Sequence record: OZ035743.1 | Strand: one strand, 5' to 3' | Origin: Phapecoctavirus DIJ07P1 | Length of the DNA: 64,000 nucleotides | Shown here: one piece after another, positions 5,905 to 61,186 of the stretch | Layout: each line of letters starts with the position of its first letter | Position numbering within the stretch: the first letter of the stretch is position 1 | Translations under genes and position numbers: made by a program | Notes under the pieces: generated by a model | Told to the model about the DNA's origin: nothing | What the model saw: the letters and a program-made list of their open reading frames with translations, nothing else | Databases searched by the model: none

Positions 5905-6115
5905 GGATACGCCCCACAGTTACTTTTACAACATCGTCCATATTAATCTCATCCCCCAAGACCTCAATAACACCTTCCTCATAAAGTCGAGCACATTCTT
6001 CCCACACTTCAGCTTCCGTCATTCCACCTGCAATCTTATTTGCAAGACCTTTAATAACATCTTCATTTTGTTCATCAACAAGAATTGAAACATTAAAGCT
6101 CACTAATTTACGCAT
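5897..6115 (-). CDS. Hypothetical protein
   Basis: 72-aa ORF, 8-nt overlap with upstream gene; RBS present. Confidence 0.5.
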   Translation of the reverse strand: MRKLVSFNVSILVDEQNEDVIKGLANKIAGGMTEAEVWEECARLYEEGVIEVLGDEINMDDVVKVTVGRIHD

Positions 6116-6125
6116 TGTTTTCTCC

Positions 6126-6293
6126 TTATACTTCTAAACGGAAAGTTTCTTTAGATACAAAATCGTATCCACCTTTTTCAAGCCAGTCATTGTAAACCTC
6201 ATCGGCTTGAGACTCTATCATAAAATACCGAGTGATAACTTCGTCTCCGACAATACGCACAATTTTATAGCAAATCATGATACCATTTCCCAT
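6126..6293 (-). CDS. Hypothetical small protein (below ORF-track cutoff)
   Basis: about 55-aa ORF read manually; ATG overlaps stop of upstream gene (TAATG); boundaries approximate. Confidence 0.35.
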   Translation of the reverse strand: MGNGIMICYKIVRIVGDEVITRYFMIESQADEVYNDWLEKGGYDFVSKETFRLEV

Positions 6294-6484
6294 TAATCTT
6301 CCTCCAGATCAATTTCATTATAACAATGTATGCAGAAACCATCATTGTGCATATGTTGTTCATAGGACATATCTTTACCACAAGACCAACAACGGATATC
6401 CCCATCGTCCCATTCACGTTCTTCTTCACCTTCAAATTCATCTGGTAGATAAGGCATACCAAGACAATCTAAATCGTAATGCAT
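6293..6484 (-). CDS. Small acidic zinc-ribbon protein
   Basis: 63 aa; CWSCG...CIHC Cys pairs; GGAGG RBS upstream; preferred over overlapping 6265..6462 frame. Confidence 0.6.
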   Translation of the reverse strand: MHYDLDCLGMPYLPDEFEGEEEREWDDGDIRCWSCGKDMSYEQHMHNDGFCIHCYNEIDLEED

Positions 6485-6500
6485 ATCTCCTCCTATAAAG

Positions 6501-6522
6501 GGGCAGAAGCCCCTTATAAAAC
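6501..6522 (-). terminator. Hairpin downstream of DNA polymerase gene
   Basis: aaggggc-aga-gcccctt stem-loop; weak T-tract. Confidence 0.45.
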
Positions 6523-6532
6523 AATGAGTTAA

Positions 6533-9130
6533 CTAGTGACAGGACGCCCAGGAGTTACCCACATCATATCCGGCAGTAAGCTGAACATTAAGATTGTAAA
6601 ATTCTCCAGCCTTAGTAACAGCTAAAGCAGCAAGTTCACCTGCCCGACTATAGGCTGTAAACCATCCACCTTTGGGAGATTCATGAATGTTAGCCCAAAT
6701 TTGCCCTGTCTCTTTTTCCTTATTATGCTTCCATTCTTCAACTTTAGCAAGGCATTCTTTATCAATTTTCTTTTGTTCTTCAGGATCGTCTACTTTCTTC
6801 CAACCTAATGATTCAGGTGAAAACCATTTAAATTCTACAAGGTTACGAGAAACTTCAAGCTGGGCTTCATCGTGATATGCAATCATTTGTTGCACGAAGT
6901 CTTTATTCTTCCAGTCATCTTTAAAGAAGTCAACACTTAGCCCTTCTTCTTCGATCATGTCGTCATAAATAACCATTGCACGTTTAGCACAGATAACCCC
7001 ACCACTTTGGAACAGAGAGTTAAGAATCGCGTGAGCAGAACGAGTAGGAACCTTACGACCGTCAATACCCAAAACATACTGTTTACCAGTCTTAACCCAG
7101 AAATCGTTTAAACGTTCTTTAAGACGCGCCAGTGGGAATGCAGCTTCCCAGAAAGCATCGAACACCAGTTGCCCTGTGTATTTATCGCTACCAATTGTTT
7201 TAGCAACCTTGTCTGCTTGTGCACCATAAGTGATCCCGTATTTAACAGATTTCGCCGGACTACGTTCAAATTTACGCCCAATAGTATCTGTAATACGTTT
7301 TGCCATCATGGTATGAACATCGTTAGGCTTCTCTAACAAGAGAGCGTTACAGTATTCATGAGGCTCCGGTTCGTAGCGCCAACAATAATGCGACTCAATC
7401 TTTGCTTCCAAAGAGTCGAAGTCATAACCGATCTGGAAGTATTTAGGAACTTCTACACCAAACAAGTTACGCATCTCCCATCCAAACAAAGATGTGACAC
7501 GAGGGATATTGGCTACAGACCTATGCTTCATACGAGAGGTTGCAGCATCACATGTAGCGGCTGGTGTAGGAATACGCCCATCCGCCCTTACTGCGGCTAA
7601 GAAACCTTTATCGTATTCTTGATCTTCTTCATCTTCTTCCCAATCAGCACCGCCACCTAAAATAGAGTTCCTACGATGCTTATACGTTAAGTATTCTACA
7701 ATCTGAGTAGCATAAGGAAATTTCTCACCCAAAGCTTGCAGGTTAGGACAAATTTCTTTTTCCTGGCCTTTGGTAAAACATGGGTTAGTCAATACTTTAA
7801 GACCGCGACCTTTACCTTTTGCTATACGCTCTTGAATCTTCCTTTCCAAGGTTTCCGGTGTGCACTCCAGATGATCACAACGATCCTGACAAAAATTAGA
7901 AGATAGAGTTTGCTCAACGTAAGCTCGAATACCTTTCTGAAGTTCTTCCTCGCTCTTTTTAATCTTGGTGCCAGATTTAAGAGTCAAGTCTTTATCTTTA
8001 TATTCAGACGGTACCCAACCTAATCCTACAAGCCAGTTTTTAATATGGGTTGTATCGTTCAATGTTGCAGGGATGTTAGGATCACATAGAGGTTCATCTG
8101 CTGCAACTGGCAGTTTCCACTCTTTCCCCAACATAACTAACCACCAATCGCCATCCCTCTCTTCCAAATGACCATCATGTTTCTTAGCAAAATTAATCAT
8201 ATGGTTAGTTGGCTCTAAGTTCTTTTTAATTTGCAACTTAGGTGGAATAAAAGCCTTAAGATAACCTTTTGTTGCTGGTTTAGGTGGCAAAATAGGCTCA
8301 ACGAGTAAACGAAGACGCTCCATTTCTGCATCCAAAAAAGCAAGGTTCTCTTCTGCTTGCTTCATGTTAAAAGCAAACCCACGGTGTTCCTGGCGTGTAA
8401 TAATGTCTGCTACACGTTGTTCAAGTTCAAATGGACCTTCCCATTTATCATAATCGCCCCATTCTTCCATAAGGTAATTATATACGCTCGTATTGGCTTT
8501 GTTGTCATAGATACAGTAATAAAGCATATCCGCAGCAAAAGTCTTAAATCGATCTTCTTCTGGAATCTCTTTACGGAAATCTATTTTTACATCACCACCT
8601 GCCTTTCGAGAAAGTGCTGCCAAACTATGTCCTGATTTGCCCTCAATCTTTCGATCTGGGTTTAACACTTTACTCAAAATCAAGGAGTCAATAAGTTTTA
8701 CCTTATTTTTGCCCCACGTATTATATTTAACACTGTAATCTAAGCCATAAAACAGTTTTGTAGCCAACCAGTCATAGTTGATACCGTTGTGAGCCACAGC
8801 CATTTCAACTAGATATTCAGGCTTATCTTTAAAATAACCTTCATGATTAATAAAATCTGGGAAATCTTTTAGTTGAAAATGTGTGTAATCTTGCGCCACA
8901 TATTCTTTAAGAACATATGTGTATTTACCATCTGACTCTTCATAAGGACGCCCATCAAAGATGTATTTAGGGCCATCGTGGAAAGCTACTATTTCTCCTG
9001 TTTCATGGTTCTCTAAGACAATACAGTGCATTTGAAATGTGTCTTTGAGACGATAAGGACTAGCTAAATAATCGATAGTGTCATTATTCAACAATCCGTT
9101 TGCTTCAATATCCCATGTAAACTTACTCAC
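6533..9130 (-). CDS. DNA polymerase, family A, with N-terminal 3'-5' exonuclease
   Basis: 865 aa; DIEANGL (Exo I); GYDFDSLEAKI (motif A); RSPAKSVKYGITYGAQ (motif B); YHDEAQLEV (motif C). Confidence 0.9.
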   Translation of the reverse strand: MSKFTWDIEANGLLNNDTIDYLASPYRLKDTFQMHCIVLENHETGEIVAFHDGPKYIFDGRPYEESDGKYTYVLKEYVAQDYTHFQLKDFPDFINHEGYFKDKPEYLVEMAVAHNGINYDWLATKLFYGLDYSVKYNTWGKNKVKLIDSLILSKVLNPDRKIEGKSGHSLAALSRKAGGDVKIDFRKEIPEEDRFKTFAADMLYYCIYDNKANTSVYNYLMEEWGDYDKWEGPFELEQRVADIITRQEHRGFAFNMKQAEENLAFLDAEMERLRLLVEPILPPKPATKGYLKAFIPPKLQIKKNLEPTNHMINFAKKHDGHLEERDGDWWLVMLGKEWKLPVAADEPLCDPNIPATLNDTTHIKNWLVGLGWVPSEYKDKDLTLKSGTKIKKSEEELQKGIRAYVEQTLSSNFCQDRCDHLECTPETLERKIQERIAKGKGRGLKVLTNPCFTKGQEKEICPNLQALGEKFPYATQIVEYLTYKHRRNSILGGGADWEEDEEDQEYDKGFLAAVRADGRIPTPAATCDAATSRMKHRSVANIPRVTSLFGWEMRNLFGVEVPKYFQIGYDFDSLEAKIESHYCWRYEPEPHEYCNALLLEKPNDVHTMMAKRITDTIGRKFERSPAKSVKYGITYGAQADKVAKTIGSDKYTGQLVFDAFWEAAFPLARLKERLNDFWVKTGKQYVLGIDGRKVPTRSAHAILNSLFQSGGVICAKRAMVIYDDMIEEEGLSVDFFKDDWKNKDFVQQMIAYHDEAQLEVSRNLVEFKWFSPESLGWKKVDDPEEQKKIDKECLAKVEEWKHNKEKETGQIWANIHESPKGGWFTAYSRAGELAALAVTKAGEFYNLNVQLTAGYDVGNSWASCH

Positions 9131-37807: not shown

Positions 37808-38061
37808 TTTACTTCCCCTTTGTAATCGGACACTATACCAGGTCTTACTTTTGCCTTAAGATGTTTCAACTCTACCATAGGAGTTGCCACTTGTATAGGG
37901 CTAACTTCAACCTTGTAGATAGTATATTCATAAGTCGCATATTTACCGATGGAATGCAAATACTTAATTGCGTGTTCAGGGGAATCTGCTTCAACATACC
38001 CTAAATCTTTCGTAGTACGACCTTCGGTATCGCCTTCAGTGGTTACGTGATAAAGTGTCAT
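37804..38061 (-). CDS. Hypothetical protein
   Basis: 85-aa ORF. Confidence 0.55.
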   Translation of the reverse strand: MTLYHVTTEGDTEGRTTKDLGYVEADSPEHAIKYLHSIGKYATYEYTIYKVEVSPIQVATPMVELKHLKAKVRPGIVSDYKGEVK

Positions 38062-38381
38062 AAAACCTCCTTCTGGTTGGCTGCTTCAATCATAACGTTA
38101 AGAGTCTCCATACCGCTTTCAACTGCTTGAGCAATCTCTTGGAACACTGTTTTCTTAAAGATGTATAAAGATCCTGCCTGTAAGCGTTGCACACAGCATA
38201 AGAGGGTTTGGTGATCCATAACAAAGTCTCCATAAGCACAATCAATTTTCCCTGTGATTGGGTTGTCTCGTGAGCGAGGATCGTATTCTAATGTGATATG
38301 CGTTACACCAGGTAAAGTAACAAACTGACAACGGATGTTGACACGTGGTGCAATTGACACGCTAAACAAACTGTTTGACAT
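38058..38381 (-). CDS. Hypothetical protein
   Basis: 107-aa ORF. Confidence 0.55.
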   Translation of the reverse strand: MSNSLFSVSIAPRVNIRCQFVTLPGVTHITLEYDPRSRDNPITGKIDCAYGDFVMDHQTLLCCVQRLQAGSLYIFKKTVFQEIAQAVESGMETLNVMIEAANQKEVL

Positions 38382-38528
38382 TTAAACCTCCTCGTAGTAA
38401 GGCAAAGCTTTGATCAGCTGTTCTGAAGTGCCATTCTCTGTCCATGTAACCCCGTTGTCAAGAGAAACATACCCTTTCTTATCGATAAATTTACGGAGAC
38501 AACCAGTGAACTTGTTTTTGTAGATCAT
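38382..38528 (-). CDS. Hypothetical small protein (below ORF-track cutoff)
   Basis: about 48-aa ORF read manually (MIYKNKFTGCLRKF...); ATG overlaps upstream stop. Confidence 0.35.
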   Translation of the reverse strand: MIYKNKFTGCLRKFIDKKGYVSLDNGVTWTENGTSEQLIKALPYYEEV

Positions 38529-38959
38529 TTCTTCTTTCCTTTCTTTAATTTGTTGTGACCTTTACCCTTATAAAGCTTGTGATTACGAGCAGATGGGTTA
38601 TTTTGGTTCTCCAGTCGGCTAACAGGTGTATTCCAAAGATTTCCTGCTACAAAAGATGCTGCCACAAGTTCTTCCAGGTATACAAAATCCAAAGCAGGTA
38701 TCTTTGTTTCCCTCATCTTGCGTTCTACATTAGACAACACGCCTTCTTCCTTACTGTCTTCTTTTTCAATTACAGACCAACCCTCTTCCTGCCAAGCTTC
38801 CCCTCTGAACCAAGTTTCCATGTTATAACCTTGTTCGTCGAGAATAACACCATCTCGCATCTCAAACCATTCACCACCGCAAAAATAACTGTGCTCAACA
38901 CGTCTACCTTCCTTCATTGCTTCTTTAGCTTCGGTCCAAGTCAGTTTGATGTTTTGCAT
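38525..38959 (-). CDS. Hypothetical protein, possibly DUF2829-like N-terminus
   Basis: 144 aa; N-terminal W.EA.EAMKEGRRV...W pattern; basic Lys-rich C-terminus; first gene after minus-strand promoter. Confidence 0.5.
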   Translation of the reverse strand: MQNIKLTWTEAKEAMKEGRRVEHSYFCGGEWFEMRDGVILDEQGYNMETWFRGEAWQEEGWSVIEKEDSKEEGVLSNVERKMRETKIPALDFVYLEELVAASFVAGNLWNTPVSRLENQNNPSARNHKLYKGKGHNKLKKGKKK

Positions 38960-39073
38960 TTGTTTTCTCCTCTTGTTTTGTATGAGTTGATCTTAACAGG
39001 ACTAAAAAGCATGTCAATACTTGATCTGAAATTATTTTCAGGTATCATATATGAACATTAACAAGAGAGGTAG
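38960..39073. promoter_or_regulatory. Divergent promoter region at strand switch
   Basis: Minus: TTGACA-16-TAAGAT; plus: TTGATC / TATCAT-like elements before 39074 ATG. Confidence 0.5.
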
Positions 39074-39367
39074 ATGATGAACATTACTTTAGCAACTAAG
39101 AATATTTCTGAGACAATTAACGGTTTTGGTGTCATTGTAGCCTTACACGGTAACAACGAGAAATGGTTGGCTTCTTTTGAAGAGGATCGTCAGCACAACA
39201 TTATTTTAGATGCTCCTATAAAAGTTATGCATATCGTTGGTGAAAGCAAAGTGCTCACTTCCTCCCGTTCAAAAGAACAAATTACAAATGAATTAGTAAA
39301 ACTGCTTGACAATGTTCTTAACATGTTTGATAATGCACCCATCGATACAAAACGTGTCTTAATGTGA
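39074..39367 (+). CDS. Hypothetical protein
   Basis: 97-aa ORF, RBS GAGAGG. Confidence 0.55.
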   Translation: MMNITLATKNISETINGFGVIVALHGNNEKWLASFEEDRQHNIILDAPIKVMHIVGESKVLTSSRSKEQITNELVKLLDNVLNMFDNAPIDTKRVLM

Positions 39368-39379
39368 GAGGAGAACCAA

Positions 39380-39667
39380 ATGTATTATTCACAAAATGAA
39401 GTAGCAAACATTAAACTGGCAGTTGGCGATCTTATTGTGTCACCTAACTACCATTGGGATAACACAGACTTGGTTGAAGTAGTAACTCATGTTGGGTTTG
39501 AGGGTGTTGTGCTCTACACCCTGGGTGGAGGTGTTGTTGGGGAAATGGAACGTTATACAACGACCAAGAAACTGGTAAGTTCTTATCGTATGTTCTTGCA
39601 TCAAGGCTCAGAAGAGTATGCAACCTTCTTGTTGAAATTGGACGCAGATCGGGAGAAGGCACGATGA
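39380..39667 (+). CDS. Hypothetical protein
   Basis: 95-aa ORF, RBS GAGGAG. Confidence 0.55.
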   Translation: MYYSQNEVANIKLAVGDLIVSPNYHWDNTDLVEVVTHVGFEGVVLYTLGGGVVGEMERYTTTKKLVSSYRMFLHQGSEEYATFLLKLDADREKAR

Positions 39668-40020
39668 AAATTGTACACGATGAAATTCAAATAGAAGAAA
39701 GTGACACGATGGATTTGGATGCAGCTTTGGGGAAGGTAATCTATGCAGGAATTAAAGCCTTCCGTGAGAAGGCAAACAATAGCACGTTTGTCATGATCCC
39801 CACTAAACTGATGCGTGTTTTGTATCCAAATAGAAGTGCGCCGTATACAGATGAAGAAGAGGAGACAGGTAGAAGAGAGTGGTTAAATATTTTAGAAAAG
39901 ATGGAGAATGCTTTTATTGATAGTGGTAATCCAGAAATCGTGTATGCTGAAGATCAAAGGAAGGCACGGTTAGAGGGCCGTCTTTTATTCGCTAGTTATT
40001 TTGATAATCTTTGGAGCTAA
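39664..40020 (+). CDS. Hypothetical protein
   Basis: 118-aa ORF. Confidence 0.55.
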   Translation: MKIVHDEIQIEESDTMDLDAALGKVIYAGIKAFREKANNSTFVMIPTKLMRVLYPNRSAPYTDEEEETGRREWLNILEKMENAFIDSGNPEIVYAEDQRKARLEGRLLFASYFDNLWS

Positions 40021-52966: not shown

Positions 52967-52993
52967 AAGGGCGCACCAAGCGCCCTTTCTTTT
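52967..52993 (+). terminator. Rho-independent terminator (copy 2, near-identical to 51723..51749)
   Basis: agggcgcaccaagcgccct followed by ttcttttt. Confidence 0.75.
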
Positions 52994-52994
52994 T

Positions 52995-54495
52995 GCCCGA
53001 ACAATGTTGATAGCTTTCGCCTATGAAAAACCGACACAGAACAAAACTGAATAAATCGCGGTATCGAGCTAATCAACCAGCAAACGAATAACCATACCTC
53101 CCAGGGTTACAGGCTGTTAGAGAGCCATTTAGAGCGGTTAAAATCGATCAACAACCAACAACAAACCATCAAAAACACCCTTTTACCTCCTTTCTAGTGC
53201 AATGATAACCATTATCATCTACCCATGATTATCTATGCAATATAAGCGCATAATTATAATGTTGATAATAGTTCGCAACAACTAACCAACAAACAACATA
53301 AAACAATAAGCAAACTAATCATAATCAAAGGAATAATAGCAAGATGATTGATAACGACAAACAATCAAACCATGATGAATACTAAGCAAGATAACGATAA
53401 CACGACAAAACAACCAACTAACGAACAATAACAAACGAAACCATTAAAATAATAACTATTAGCAAAATAGTGCATGAATGAAATCATTACAAAACGAATC
53501 ATTCACAGAGTCATCATTAGCACGCTATGCCGGACACATAGCGAGCTAATAATAAGCCAACTACACCCCAACAATCATAACCATCGGTGACGGTTATTTC
53601 TTGTTACTGCGTAGCTTGCAATAATTGCAAGCGTAATGACGCTTACACTTATTGCGCTGGCTTATTATTAGCATTATATGTAATTACCAAGATCATAACA
53701 TTAGCGCAATAACAATAGTCATTGTGATAATTACAAGATGAGATCATTAGCAAGATGAATAATTGCACGTAGCAACATGAGCGAATAGCGACAGGTTGCA
53801 TAGTGTGCACATAGTGTATAAACATACAAGAAAATAAAGGCTAATCTTTTGGGGGCGAATACTATCGCGTAGCGATATGTTGAGCACCTTCTCTTAAACG
53901 TAAATAAAATCAGAAAATTCTTGATTTATTTTGGCTTTTATGTTAATAAACGTTTAAATAATAATCATTCTCATATAAATAATAGTCTGCTTGTCATGAG
54001 CGGCATTAGTTGACATTGTTCCGTCATATGATGAAGTTGCCAAGCCATTGATAAATAAGTGTTTGTGTGATTTATAATCAGGTGGCCCACCTTGTCGCTA
54101 TGTTGGCATGAGCCTTGCATAAGTCATTGAATACGAATGATAATTATTCTCATTCGCATGATATTTGGGAATTGTCGCTGCGTGGACCTGACGGCCCGAA
54201 AATTCGCGTTAAGCACTTCTTACGTATGCGCCATGATTTTTGCCATATGATATTGATTCTATTAGATATTCTTGCCATTATTGCCATGAAACAGGGTGTG
54301 TCGAAATAATTGCTCCCCGTAGATATTTTGGGTTACTTTTTATACAAGAGTGGGGTGTCAAAAATAATCGGTATATATGGGATAATTGATAGGAATCCCC
54401 TATGATAATTCGATTGTAATTCCCTAAGATTGATCGTATGATGTTGGTGATTGATGATTGCCATGAAAGATGGCTAACGATGAGAGGAGATTGTC
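52995..54495. other. A/C-rich, strand-asymmetric non-coding region (~1.5 kb)
   Basis: No convincing ORF; plus strand dominated by A and C with recurring CAAGATGA / GATAACGA / ATCATTAGC words. Confidence 0.6.
53957..54157. promoter_or_regulatory. Fur-box-like palindromes (second locus)
   Basis: aataataatcattctcat (53957..53974) and cgaatgataattattctcattcg (54135..54157); same motif family as 45741..45846. Confidence 0.45.
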
Positions 54496-54840
54496 ATGCA
54501 AGAGAGTAAAAATGTTCCGTTGAGTAGTTTACGTCTAATGAAGTTTTACAAAGCTTGGCTTGCTGGTGAGGTAGAAGGTCACACAACGAGTGGTTTGTGC
54601 ATATGTTTGATTAAGTATGTAGAGGGAACATATCCTGATAAACTGTTACCTCGTCTACAACAGGAGATGAAATCACAGTTTATTAGTGCAGGATTGGATT
54701 ACAATTTCCCGTTTAATGAAGGTGGTTATGAAGAATACACCTTCGAACATAAAAAACATATTTGCCATAAAAACAAACATCGTATACAATGGGTGTTAGA
54801 TAGAATTCAGGATTATGAAGGAGAGAAAAATGACAAATAG
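54496..54840 (+). CDS. Paralogue family X member 1
   Basis: 114 aa; shares FYKAWL, TSGLC.CL, AGLDYN.PFN, R.QWV.DRI blocks with 54830..55198 and 60255..60569. Confidence 0.65.
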   Translation: MQESKNVPLSSLRLMKFYKAWLAGEVEGHTTSGLCICLIKYVEGTYPDKLLPRLQQEMKSQFISAGLDYNFPFNEGGYEEYTFEHKKHICHKNKHRIQWVLDRIQDYEGEKNDK

Positions 54841-55198
54841 TATTCCGTTGAGCAGTGCAACATTGCTTCGCTTCTACAAAGCATGGATTGCCAACTATCC
54901 TGCAATGAATCGCACAACGAGTGGCTTATGTGGTTGTCTGGTAGATTATGTAGATGATTTTGTTGGTGAGACAACTAGAGAAGAAGATAGAAGATGGCGG
55001 GATAGTTTGTTAGACCGTTTGAAATATGAAATGAGGAAACAATTTACATGTGCAGGGCTGGACTACAATCTTCCGTTTAATGCAGATTGCATGGATTACC
55101 TTTCAGAGTGTATAAACTTGGCGTGTCATACCAACACGTTACGTCTTCAATGGGTGAAAGACAGAATTGAAGATGCAAATAATGCTTGCATTGAATAA
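54830..55198 (+). CDS. Paralogue family X member 2
   Basis: Start set at MTNSIPLSS after GGAGAG RBS. Confidence 0.65.
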   Translation: MTNSIPLSSATLLRFYKAWIANYPAMNRTTSGLCGCLVDYVDDFVGETTREEDRRWRDSLLDRLKYEMRKQFTCAGLDYNLPFNADCMDYLSECINLACHTNTLRLQWVKDRIEDANNACIE

Positions 55199-55705: not shown

Positions 55706-56163
55706 GACAACTATCTATACTAGAAGCGCATGTGCAATGTGTTGTAGATTATGTCAAAGAACACTCAAGTTTGTTGAATGTAACCTGTGCAGTGCAAAAC
55801 GATGTAGGTGTTGTCTGTGTGCAACATATCTTATCTGAAACTCGTTATGAAGTATTTCGTGCCACGTTGTTTGGATGTGATCGAGTGCATGTAAACTTCC
55901 TGGACTCCAATTATCGTTATGCTTTAGAAGATATTGATAAGTATTTGCCTTGCTCTCCGACAGGATATGTAATGGTAACAGCAAACGAAGTAACACCGAG
56001 CAACAGTGAACAGGAAGCTTTGTTACGGAAGAAAATACGCCAACTGCAAGTGTTGAATGAACTGAAAGAAGAGATTGAAAAAGAACTGAAAGAAGATTTT
56101 GGTATGCTTCCAAAAGACGCTTTGAAATGGTATGATGAACTAGGAGGAGAAAGTTATGAATAA
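55702..56163 (+). CDS. Hypothetical protein
   Basis: 153-aa ORF, RBS GGGAGG. Confidence 0.6.
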   Translation: MRQLSILEAHVQCVVDYVKEHSSLLNVTCAVQNDVGVVCVQHILSETRYEVFRATLFGCDRVHVNFLDSNYRYALEDIDKYLPCSPTGYVMVTANEVTPSNSEQEALLRKKIRQLQVLNELKEEIEKELKEDFGMLPKDALKWYDELGGESYE

Positions 56164-56350
56164 AGGAACTACTGTATATTTAGTGACTAAGAACACCCCA
56201 GGTTGGAGCCAATGCAGCACTGTTCCTTACAAGATCTGTGCAACATTAGAACTAGCACAACGTGCAGAAGCAGAAGTGAATACCATGCAATACAGCTATG
56301 GTGAAATCATTCCTTTTACTCTTGAACAAGAAGGAGCACATCGTGTTTAA
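56156..56350 (+). CDS. Hypothetical small protein
   Basis: 64-aa ORF. Confidence 0.55.
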   Translation: MNKGTTVYLVTKNTPGWSQCSTVPYKICATLELAQRAEAEVNTMQYSYGEIIPFTLEQEGAHRV

Positions 56351-56798
56351 AGTAGGGTTTACTTATAAATTCAAAAGCGTTGCTGACCAAGGAGATATGG
56401 CAACACATGACAAAGCAAATATTGCTGTTTGCCAAGTGATTGGAAACGAAGTTTTCAAAGTTATGAATACAGATGATAAGTATGGTCATGTTCTTGAGTT
56501 TTATATCAACGGTACCCTCTATACAGCAGGTGTTACCCCAGGGTTTAATTCGTATACTTATTTGATTGATAACGAAGAATTTAAATATTTTGAAGAAGTA
56601 AAGGAGGAAACAATGGGTAAAGCAGAACCACAATGGCATGTTGTGATTGTAGGATCAGAGTGTGTAGATGTTTGTTCTAGTTTTGAAAAAGCTTCTGAAG
56701 TCGCTACAAAAGCTAAGAAGGATTATCCGTCGAAGACGGTTGAGATTTACGCTCGTGTTGCAGTAGCAAACGCCACAATCACTATTGATAAGGAGTAA
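56343..56798 (+). CDS. MFK-family tandem paralogue 1
   Basis: Start set at GTG after AAGGAG RBS, giving (M)FKVGFTYKFKS N-terminus matching paralogues; C-terminal TVEIYARV. Confidence 0.6.
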   Translation: MFKVGFTYKFKSVADQGDMATHDKANIAVCQVIGNEVFKVMNTDDKYGHVLEFYINGTLYTAGVTPGFNSYTYLIDNEEFKYFEEVKEETMGKAEPQWHVVIVGSECVDVCSSFEKASEVATKAKKDYPSKTVEIYARVAVANATITIDKE

Positions 56799-56803
56799 AA
56801 CCA

Positions 56804-57262
56804 ATGTTCAAAGAAGGTCATGTCTACCGTTTCCAGGATGAGGATTATATGCGACTATATTCTACCTTTGATAACAGTATTGCGGCTATCATTGGAGAGA
56901 ATTTTTTCGAGGTGTTGAGCACTGATGCAAATGGTAATATCTTGTCAATGGTTGTAATAGGTATGAGAGATGGTATTATCACTGCTGGTGATGGGGATCG
57001 TTACATAATCAATTCTGCTCATATAGATTATTTTGTTGACGGTGGTGTTCGTGGTGGTCGTGGAAAACCCCAAGAAGAACCTGTTGATACAACAAAAGAA
57101 GAGTGGTATGTTGTAATGACTGATGACACCTGTATTTCTGGATTTGAAAGTTATGAAGAAGCTTTGAAAGAAGCAGCAGAGCATAAAATGGCTAATCCTA
57201 CAGAAGAGGTTGAAGTTTATAAACGTATGGTTGTTGCTACCATCGGCGTATCTTTTGTTTAA
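56804..57262 (+). CDS. MFK-family tandem paralogue 2
   Basis: MFKEGHVYRFQ... EVEVYKRMVV. Confidence 0.65.
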   Translation: MFKEGHVYRFQDEDYMRLYSTFDNSIAAIIGENFFEVLSTDANGNILSMVVIGMRDGIITAGDGDRYIINSAHIDYFVDGGVRGGRGKPQEEPVDTTKEEWYVVMTDDTCISGFESYEEALKEAAEHKMANPTEEVEVYKRMVVATIGVSFV

Positions 57263-57274
57263 AAGGGGAATGTT

Positions 57275-58060
57275 ATGTTTAAAGTAGGTTTTGTTTATAA
57301 TTTCAAATCGGAAGATACCAAAAAGAATTTTGGTAAAGCCAGTATTCGTAACGCTTTCTTTGTAGGTTGCATTCAAGATAGCAAGTTTAAAGTTTTAGAT
57401 GTTGATTTTCTAGGTTCTGTGTCAAAGGTGAAGGTATTAGACACAAATAAGATCATCGAAGGTAGTTCTGGGCTTTTTCCTGAAGGCTATAAGCTTGTAA
57501 GTTGTATAGATTATAGTCGTTTTGAAGAACATCCTCCTGAAGATTATGAGGATTCTCCTACAGGAGGTTGTGTCTTTGTAGAAGGTGGTGTCTATAAGTT
57601 TGCAAGTGAACAAGATCGTAAGCTTTTCGCCAATTATATTGACGGCGGACAAACGACAAACAATGTAAACCGAAAAATTTCCGATCTTATTGGCGATGAT
57701 CCTTTCGTGATCACAAAGATGGTTGGACAAGATGTAACAGCAATCCGTAGGCTTGTATGTAATACAAATCATGTAGCAGGTGAAGGTTGGTTCAAAGAAG
57801 CTTGTGCACTGCTAATCAAAAGCGATAACCCTTACTTTAAAAATATTAAAGATGCTGTTGAGCCTAAACAAGAGGAACCCGCAGCGAATTTTAAACACTA
57901 TGCTATTGTTAAAGGTATGAATGTCCAACTGGTGTCACATTCTTACGAAGAGATCGCCACAGAAGCAAAAAAGATGAAGGAAGAATACCCAATTTCTACT
58001 GTTGAGATCTATGAGCGTATTGGTGTTGTTAGTATTGAGCCTACTGCGGTAATAAAATAA
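57275..58060 (+). CDS. MFK-family tandem paralogue 3 (duplicated N-terminal module)
   Basis: 261 aa; MFKVGFVYNFKS at N-terminus and internal GGVYKFASEQDRKLF repeat; C-terminal TVEIYERIGV. Confidence 0.65.
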   Translation: MFKVGFVYNFKSEDTKKNFGKASIRNAFFVGCIQDSKFKVLDVDFLGSVSKVKVLDTNKIIEGSSGLFPEGYKLVSCIDYSRFEEHPPEDYEDSPTGGCVFVEGGVYKFASEQDRKLFANYIDGGQTTNNVNRKISDLIGDDPFVITKMVGQDVTAIRRLVCNTNHVAGEGWFKEACALLIKSDNPYFKNIKDAVEPKQEEPAANFKHYAIVKGMNVQLVSHSYEEIATEAKKMKEEYPISTVEIYERIGVVSIEPTAVIK

Positions 58061-58069
58061 GGAGCTATT

Positions 58070-58507
58070 ATGTTCAAAGCTAATGCTGTTTACTGTTTCA
58101 AAAGTAAAGCTGCCTGTGAAGCTTTCTCTGTGATCTCGGATGAAAATTTCAAAATGGCAGCTTTGATTGAAGGGTCTTGTTTCCGCGTCGAAGATGTTAG
58201 TGAATCAGGGTCTGTTTGCTCATTGACTTTATTGGACAGCGGGGATATTATTGAAGCTGGACAGTATCCTTTCAGAAGTTGGGAGATATTGTTAGCTCGC
58301 GGAGAGCGTAACTTTTTTATGTGTGTGTCTGCGGGGGAAGTTGTGAAAGAAACTAATGATGTTTCTGTTTACAATTCTGAATTTATAAGTTATAGTGAGT
58401 ATCAACATCTGGAAGGCATTGTTGGTCACTTGTTATCTCTGATTGACGTTGAATGTGACCTGCCTGAATCATTGAAAGAAGAATTGAAAGCATTAGATCT
58501 GTTATAA
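58070..58507 (+). CDS. MFK-family tandem paralogue 4 (divergent)
   Basis: MFKANAVYCFKSKAA... Confidence 0.6.
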   Translation: MFKANAVYCFKSKAACEAFSVISDENFKMAALIEGSCFRVEDVSESGSVCSLTLLDSGDIIEAGQYPFRSWEILLARGERNFFMCVSAGEVVKETNDVSVYNSEFISYSEYQHLEGIVGHLLSLIDVECDLPESLKEELKALDLL

Positions 58508-60254: not shown

Positions 60255-60569
60255 ATGTCAGAGGAACTTAAAGAATTTTATCAAGCCTATCATAATTGGC
60301 TGTTAGCTGGTGCTCCAGATAATAATCCTTTCTGGCATGATAAAGGTTTGTGCAGTTGCCTCTATCTTTGGTCTGGTGGCTATGATGATCTAAATTATGA
60401 AATGCAAATGCAATTCCGCGAAGCAGGGTTGTCTGAAGAATACCCGTTTGATGACGGAGACTGGTTTAAATATGATTTTGCACAAAGAAACGGGCTATTG
60501 CATTTGAATGCTGCCCGTATAAAATGGGTAAAGGATCATGCTACACAGGAGGATGTGCAATGCCAATAG
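60255..60569 (+). CDS. Paralogue family X member 3
   Basis: FYQAYHNWLLAG...KGLCSCLYLW...AGLSEEYPFDDG...RIKWVKDHA. Confidence 0.6.
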   Translation: MSEELKEFYQAYHNWLLAGAPDNNPFWHDKGLCSCLYLWSGGYDDLNYEMQMQFREAGLSEEYPFDDGDWFKYDFAQRNGLLHLNAARIKWVKDHATQEDVQCQ

Positions 60570-60964: not shown

Positions 60965-61186
60965 ATGAAAATTAGAGTTTGTGATGTATTGGGTTATGTT
61001 GGTTTTGAGAATGTTCAGATTCCTTTTGTTGTTGAAGCACATCTTGTTAGTGATGATATGACAACATTCTTTGTTACGATAGAAGAAATGTCCAAAGTTG
61101 AGGGATGGGAGTGGTTTGAAGAAGATGTTTGGGAAGGTTGTGATTACGTATTTTTCTCTGACGAAGTGAATGTTCTTTCGGAGTAG
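60965..61186 (+). CDS. Hypothetical small acidic protein
   Basis: 73-aa ORF. Confidence 0.55.
   Translation: MKIRVCDVLGYVGFENVQIPFVVEAHLVSDDMTTFFVTIEEMSKVEGWEWFEEDVWEGCDYVFFSDEVNVLSE

Follow-up and report, generated by a model that had tools for sequence, protein, structure and literature searches.

Four tandem genes and their shared modules

The window analyzed here, a 64,000-nucleotide (nt) stretch of Phapecoctavirus DIJ07P1 (sequence record OZ035743.1), carries at 56343-58507 four neighboring plus-strand genes, G1 to G4, separated by intergenic gaps of 5-12 nt (Table 1). Two protein modules recur in these genes: an N-terminal module of ~90 amino acids (aa), with five occurrences across G1-G4, two of them in G3, and a C-terminal module of ~55 aa that is common to G1, G2, and G3. 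G4 ends in an acidic tail (isoelectric point, pI, of 4.2) that is unrelated to the C module, gives no match to the C-module profile, and, judged from its residues, looks helical. An AGGAG-type Shine-Dalgarno sequence precedes each of the four genes. The GTG start of G1, which is likewise annotated as the start in phage ESCO37, has AAGGAG 6 nt upstream; an alternative ATG at 56298, which implies a 53-nt overlap with the upstream gene, was set aside.

An earlier note on this DNA had described four tandem paralogs that begin with MFK.G.VY.FKS, three of which end with TVEIY.R..V, and had recognized an internal duplication of the N-terminal module in the third. Hidden Markov models (HMMs) built with each gene omitted in turn were used to search the 1,060 six-frame open reading frames (ORFs) of the window, to which T4 GoF was added as a control. 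The omitted gene was always the top window ORF outside the training set, with E values for the N module of 2.9e-11 (G1), 4.1e-8 (G2), 2e-14 (G3), and 1.1e-11 (G4), and for the C module of 2e-11 (G1), 8.8e-9 (G2), and 1.1e-7 (G3). Unrelated window ORFs gave E values of at least 0.03; when G2 was the omitted gene, the GoF control scored slightly above it. The profiles thus recover each left-out gene, and the shared motifs are statistically supported at E values as low as 1e-14. Pairwise BLASTP comparisons gave 59 bits for G1-G2, 40 for G1-G3, 41 for G3-G4, 26 for G1-G4, and 22 for G2-G4. All four proteins also match a common set of independent PHROG profiles (3710, 622, 5347, and 5804); PHROG 3710 matches G2 over its full length (E = 5e-34), and phrog_22975 matches G4 at E = 2e-98.

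The tandem paralogs described in the note are therefore real, as is the duplication within G3, in which copy a spans residues 1-97 and copy b residues 98-~200. Both halves have PHROG matches of their own, both to goF profiles: phrog_13003 matches residues 1-51 (E = 3.5e-7), and phrog_2980 matches residues 107-189 (E = 3.3e-6). Copy b is the most divergent of the N copies (independent E value in the leave-one-out searches, 0.0034-0.033). The wording of the two motifs proved approximate. The start is shared, but only M1, F2, K3, Y8, and F10 are invariant, with TY for VY in G1, FQD for FKS in G2, and N for G in G4. The end motif reads TVEIYARVAV in G1 and TVEIYERIGV in G3, but EVEVYKRMVV in G2, and it is absent from G4. 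A search of the 64-kb window with two profiles found no fifth member of the family.

Table 1 Features of the array, its surroundings, and the related locus of phage PM2 (positions in the window unless indicated)
Feature	Position	Strand	Description
Terminator hairpin	52967-52987		strong, bidirectional
ORF-free stretch	~53000-54490		~1.5 kb, A-rich, many caacaa-type repeats
Second paralog family, first gene	54496-54840	+	phrog_2510
Second paralog family, second gene	54815-55198	+	phrog_2510
64-aa ORF	56156-56350	+	phrog_24303, a function-unknown family; overlaps the G1 start
G1	56343-56798	+	151 aa; GTG start; N module 1-~88, C module ~97-151
G2	56804-57262	+	152 aa; predicted N beta-barrel 1-82, disordered Gly/acidic linker 83-100, C module 101-~145
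G2 linker microhomology, CAAGAAGAACC	57071-57081	+	encodes QEEP; crossover site of the phAPEC8 chimera
G3	57275-58060	+	261 aa; N-N-C architecture
G3 start motif, ATGTTTAAAGT	57275-57285	+	crossover site for G3 loss in DE16-type phages
G3 first N module (Na)	57275-57565	+	
G3 internal AGGAGG	57562-57567		Shine-Dalgarno-like
G3 second N module (Nb)	57566-~57862	+	
G3 linker microhomology, CAAGAGGAACC	57869-57879	+	encodes QEEP; partner of the G2 crossover site
G3 C module	~57896-58057	+	
G4	58070-58507	+	145 aa; N module 1-~90, acidic C-terminal tail ~101-145
G4 start motif, ATGTTCAAAGC	58070-58080	+	partner of the G3 start motif
Second paralog family, third gene	60255-60569	+	phrog_2510
PM2 tandem pair of N+C proteins	6001-6486, 6496-7005 (locus L009)		
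PM2 third N+C copy	7428-7970 (locus L009)		weaker copy

Relation to the T4 GoF/Frd.2 proteins

An exhaustive HMMER search of 1.84 billion representative proteins returned 45 matches at E ≤ 1e-3, of which five were discarded as composition or repeat artifacts (by Pfam, four bacterial cadherin-repeat proteins and one choline-binding-repeat protein). The remaining matches are 120-350 aa long and, where the source is known, come from phage genomes of ~140-175 kb: Justusliebigvirus (phi92 gp003, alia), phiWec179/190, and T4-like phages of Proteus and Pectobacterium. A 24-sequence family alignment drawn from this search was compared by hhalign with T4 proteins. The family profile aligns with residues 4-91 of T4 GoF (hhalign probability 97.6%, E = 3e-12; HMM E = 3e-13), with residues 2-88 of T4 Frd.2 (84%, E = 7e-6; HMM E = 1e-4), and, over 45 columns, with MotB.1 (50%, E = 1.6e-4). 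The leave-one-out profiles still recover GoF, at E values from 1e-3 to 5e-9. Three PHROGs annotated 'goF mRNA metabolism modulator' are matched (13003, 2980, and 8944), and some GenBank records already give this name to G2, G3, or G4. Pfam and NCBIfam searches of the four proteins gave no family above threshold, and the matches to DUF2782 and DUF7336 lay below the cut-offs and were not used. These comparisons argue strongly that G1-G4 are paralogous members of the phage GoF/Frd.2 family, an assignment we consider very probable.

GoF, also called comC-alpha, was discovered genetically decades ago. With Frd.2 and MotB.1 it forms a family of early proteins in which an 'LSm-like' beta-barrel at the N terminus is followed by a flexible linker and by C-terminal domains of diverse kinds, described for the Tevenvirinae in a study that leaves phAPEC8-like phages unmentioned (Kim et al. 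2025, PMC12152347). T4 GoF is early and abundant, and knockout of goF, motB.1, or frd.2 causes no plating defect (PMC12152347). Mutations in goF permit T4 growth on certain rho alleles, and GoF(D25Y) stabilizes an mRNA post-transcriptionally, lengthening its half-life in an Hfq-independent manner, while wild-type GoF does not; the mRNA and rho effects are known only for the T4 GoF mutants D25Y and G84R (PMC12152347). A genome-wide CRISPRi-ART knock-down screen scored frd.2 as a fitness gene, alone among the T4 genes of unknown function (PMC11879866).

The likeness to T4 GoF and Frd.2 extends from the homologous ~90-aa N-terminal barrel to the plan of the whole protein, in which the barrel is followed by a flexible acidic linker and a small variable C-terminal module. 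Size and acidity match as well: the pI values of G1-G4 (4.4-5.5) are close to those of GoF (4.6) and Frd.2 (4.4), with net charges of -7, -15, -5, and -14 for G1 to G4, respectively. In both cases there are several paralogs per genome, and the proteins are found only in phages. The copies are scattered in T4, whereas here they are strictly tandem; the T4 relatives belong to the Straboviridae and the present phage to the Stephanstirmvirinae; and one member of the array, G3, has two barrels.

The fold was modeled for G2 with AlphaFold2 from the 24-sequence alignment (mean predicted local distance difference test score, pLDDT, of 89). The model presents the architecture of a family member, namely a five-stranded antiparallel N barrel and, beyond a flexible linker, a C module that stands apart from it. 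The barrel strands are at residues 6-10, 35-40, 46-51, 58-60, and 77-82; the first of them (beta1) bears the invariant Y-x-F, and two short helices lie between beta1 and beta2. Residues 87-97 are predicted to be disordered, and residues 102-140 form a beta-beta-alpha-beta unit. The barrel is common to all four proteins; the second module is a beta-beta-alpha-beta unit of ~50 aa in G1-G3 and the acidic tail in G4. A Foldseek search of the model against the Protein Data Bank (PDB) gave nothing below E = 0.5, and a PDB sequence search found no relative. In BFVD there were 56 matches, all to uncharacterized proteins of phapecocta- and T4-like phages, and many of them aligned across both modules.

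Among known folds, the model ranks FeoA, EF-P, and Tudor domains above any LSm protein, with Hfq outside the top 60; the Sm fold was not the best structural match of the N barrel, although a small bent five-stranded beta-sheet is common to it and to the Hfq and Sm/LSm proteins. On the evidence of the model, 'SH3/FeoA-like barrel' fits the N module better than 'LSm'. The relation to FeoA and to the C-terminal SH3-like domain of DtxR/IdeR/SloR is one of fold only: identity is 5-13% with no sequence-level signal, Foldseek E values are at least 0.57, and the genomic context is not metal-related. The C module resembles ClpS over only about half of the ClpS structure at 13-16% identity, and neither the full ClpS core nor sequence similarity was found in it. 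This match most likely reflects a generic small alpha/beta motif. The fold by itself assigns no function.

Copy number, recombination, and selection

The region of the locus is 97% identical to other Phapecoctavirus genomes (phAPEC8-like, ~150-kb myoviruses of Escherichia coli within the Stephanstirmvirinae), and the gene content of the array varies among them. G4 is present in 61 phage records (at least 80% identity), G1 in 23 (at least 95% identity), and full-length G3 in 16. G4 is the core copy; G1 and G3 are accessory copies, and their natural loss in related viable phages argues that both are dispensable. At least four arrangements exist, with 2-4 copies per phage. The full G1-G2-G3-G4 array of the window is found also in ESCO37, REC, ECO340P1, and ECO340P2; ESCO13, ev052, and vB_Ec-G1 have G2-G3-G4; and DE16 has G1-G2-G4, as probably do the other records that cover about 71-72% of the query. 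The phAPEC8 phage has a two-gene arrangement, the first gene of which, the chimera phAPEC8_0024, joins the barrel of G2 to the C module of G3.

Breakpoints were located by BLASTN and from the aligned junction sequences. In DE16, the upstream region and the first 11 nt of G3 (ATGTTTAAAGT) lead straight into the body of G4, which places the crossover within the start motif that the two genes share. In phAPEC8, the junction of the chimera lies within CAAGARGAACC, which codes for QEEP in both linkers. The array is reshaped by recombination at two short conserved stretches, the start ATGTTYAAAG and the linker CAAGARGAACC. G1 is gained or lost in a different unit: the 64-aa ORF that overlaps its start and G1 itself always move jointly, as one ~650-nt cassette that extends from the ribosome-binding site and ATG at 56156 to the ATG of G2 at 56804. 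This cassette is present in ESCO37, ECO340P1, and DE16 and absent from ev052, vB_Ec-G1, and phAPEC8. Its 64-aa ORF is more divergent between phages than is G1 (89.7% versus 99.3% identity to ESCO37). We had considered this ORF as a free-standing C module, for which the C-module profile gave no support.

When G3 is aligned with its paralogs, their start codons fall on a GTC codon within G3, and the Shine-Dalgarno-like AGGAGG precedes this codon by 4 nt. An internal start at the second barrel was rejected, as no in-frame start codon follows; the sequence may be a relic of a two-gene fusion. Proteins with two or three barrels recur among the relatives (P0005, P0018, P0019, P0025, P0034, and P0035 in our numbering), and the N-N-C plan of G3 is colinear with one of them, the 258-aa metagenomic protein P0005 (27% identity, E = 4e-22). 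Tandem copies recur as well. Two members in phiWec179 have adjacent accession numbers, and in Pectobacterium phage PM2 gp220 and gp221 stand side by side, with a weaker gp223, in the hyperplastic 30.x region. No protein with the N+C plan was found in the 30.x region of T4.

The ratio of nonsynonymous to synonymous differences (pN/pS, by the method of Nei and Gojobori) between the window and six related phages, in comparisons that all share the window sequence and are hence not independent, is 0.15 for G1, 0.13 for G2, 0.12 for G3, and 0.15 for G4, within the range of twelve flanking genes (0.02-0.31). The four ORFs are thereby shown to be real genes, subject to purifying selection of an ordinary kind. 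Identity between the paralogs is 25-40%. The paralogs are old, and the array arose from old tandem duplication and fusion. The earlier note had spoken of a tandem diversifying family and had proposed a dN/dS comparison across related phages. Tandem paralogs they are, but 'diversifying' finds no support: the values do not differ from those of the flanks, the copies are old, and no fast sequence change is seen in G1-G4. What varies today is which genes are gained, lost, or recombined, and not a rapidly changing sequence.

The genes around the array form a tight same-strand block of small ORFs, and the neighbors are all of unknown function. A second family of paralogs lies in this block. Its three proteins, of ~105-127 aa, share the motifs FYKAW...TSGLC.CL...AGLDYNFPF...WV, all match phrog_2510 (E = 1e-25 to 1e-29), and are under strong purifying selection (pN/pS 0.02-0.10). 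Another observation concerns P0006, a 141-aa metagenomic protein and a further natural chimera. Its N-terminal part looks, by eye, like what the small gene at 60965-61186 encodes, and at the residues 'EGW' this part is joined to the final ~90 residues of G3 (57790-58060). Recombination in the block thus seems wider than the four paralogs. Upstream, a stretch without credible ORFs sits between the strong terminator hairpin and the first plus-strand gene of the block. It is unannotated in related records, the ESCO37 record begins within it, and early promoters, an origin, or the genome end may be located there. Farther away, at ~38000-40000, the GC skew changes sign (about -0.1/-0.2 before, +0.2 after) and the large ORFs pass from the minus to the plus strand, which marks the boundary between divergent gene blocks.

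The locus also appears in records named Campylobacter phage B15, A150, and A110a and Acinetobacter phage vB_AbaM_ABPW7. In B15 and ABPW7 it has ~97% DNA identity to the E. coli phapecoctaviruses, while A150 and A110a match at the protein level only (~31%), as does the Justusliebigvirus copy. These records bear host names that look doubtful.

Putative role of the array

The explanation that we favor, at a probability of about 0.6, is that the locus is an array of GoF-family genes, reshaped by recombination, whose products act early as binding or adaptor proteins. The four genes would be co-transcribed within the long block of small accessory genes, because the gaps between genes are small (5-27 nt) and the array contains a single plus-strand terminator-like match, a weak 5-bp stem inside G3. 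Early timing is suggested by the gene context and by the T4 relatives. The earlier note had placed the genes in an early region and had seen them as typical of host-takeover proteins. This reading gains from the block of small genes and from the homology of the N module to T4 early proteins that have been discussed as takeover factors (PMC12152347); early expression as such is carried over from context and from T4.

The proteins are acidic and have no recognizable catalytic motif, so that their most likely part in host takeover would be a stoichiometric one, that of binding or adaptor proteins without enzymatic action. The barrel would dock on a host macromolecule, and the second module would add another contact. 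A protein target is more probable than RNA, because of the charge and of the FeoA/Tudor/KOW-like barrel. By analogy with goF genetics (rho suppression and the stabilization of gene 41 mRNA), this target would probably lie where transcription termination and mRNA decay meet. That G1-G4 are adaptors or inhibitors aimed specifically at the host machinery for these two processes is a possibility that we advance tentatively.

Several points weigh against this explanation. The single functional anchor of the family is genetic, and even wild-type T4 GoF is without demonstrated activity. Pfam FRD2 (PF03197) is matched below threshold and by G1 only (15.6 bits versus a cut-off of 29), a further difference from the T4 proteins, and gives weak matches to four of the 24 family members. 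Both barrels of G3 have neutral to basic pI values (8.6 and 6.8), so nucleic-acid binding would be possible for this protein. Finally, a sigma-70 promoter scan showed no enrichment over shuffled sequences (39 sites found, 34 expected), and on this account no promoter is claimed.

Alternatively, the proteins could be anti-defense inhibitors or decoys. Each copy would then neutralize a different host immune system, and the variable copy number would be accounted for. Presence and absence indeed differ between phages of ~97% identity (of ~61 records, 23 have G1 and 16 have G3), the genes lie within a block of small accessory genes and encode small acidic proteins without catalytic motifs, and tandem copies are found also in T4-like phages and other Stephanstirmvirinae. 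The pN/pS values carry no arms-race signature, however, and what is known so far of the T4 relatives connects them with RNA levels and not with immunity. Neither was there similarity to characterized anti-defense proteins in Pfam, NCBIfam, the PHROG annotations, or PDB sequences and folds, a set that includes no dedicated anti-defense library. The idea, which the earlier note had also raised, fits the pattern of presence and absence, but nothing found here links the genes to anti-defense, and we regard it as improbable.

Less probable still is that the barrels are direct RNA-binding chaperones of the Hfq/LSm kind, which would bind phage or host transcripts and shield them from decay. The stabilization of mRNA by GoF(D25Y) has been read as a gain of function, wild-type GoF and MotB.1 having little effect, and AlphaFold3 gives no confident rings for GoF. 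G1, G2, and G4 are strongly acidic, the fold ranking given above places FeoA, EF-P, and Tudor domains ahead of LSm and Hfq, and the two helices between beta1 and beta2 in the model are not the N-terminal helix of Sm proteins. The proposal that the shared motifs are chance, or reflect some signal in DNA or RNA, such as a translation-initiation region, and not protein homology, can point to the concentration of DNA identity between paralogs in the first ~33 nt (28/36 for G1 versus G3), but it is already refuted by the leave-one-out searches, in which the similarity spans ~90 and ~55 residues, by the confident G2 model, in which Y-x-F is buried in strand beta1, and by the alignment with GoF, where the motif is internal (residues 10-14), as it is in copy b of G3.

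An array of recombining GoF-family binding proteins would also admit a more speculative extension, which we think doubtful: that it is a built-in domain-shuffling system, in which the start motif and the linker are kept similar in DNA and short-homology recombination deletes, duplicates, and swaps barrels and C modules as cassettes. In a stronger version, the barrels could be mimics of those KOW/Tudor domains whose docking partner is Rho, ribosomal protein S10, or RNA polymerase. If shuffling of this kind occurs, close relatives would acquire different sets of host-factor binders without fast evolution by point mutation.

The locus does not represent a new kind of system. The GoF/Frd.2 family is published, functionally unsolved, and partly labeled in databases. 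What is new is the extension of the family to the Stephanstirmvirinae as a tandem array of 2-4 copies, the recurrence of a conserved C-terminal module in it, and the clear evidence for exchange of copies and modules at two short conserved sequences. No biochemical function has been assigned to GoF, or to Frd.2 and MotB.1, and the array with its natural chimeras provides both natural experiments and ready constructs for finding their targets. Comparison of phages with two, three, and four copies, or the swapping of modules at the natural crossovers, could reveal what each part of these proteins binds.

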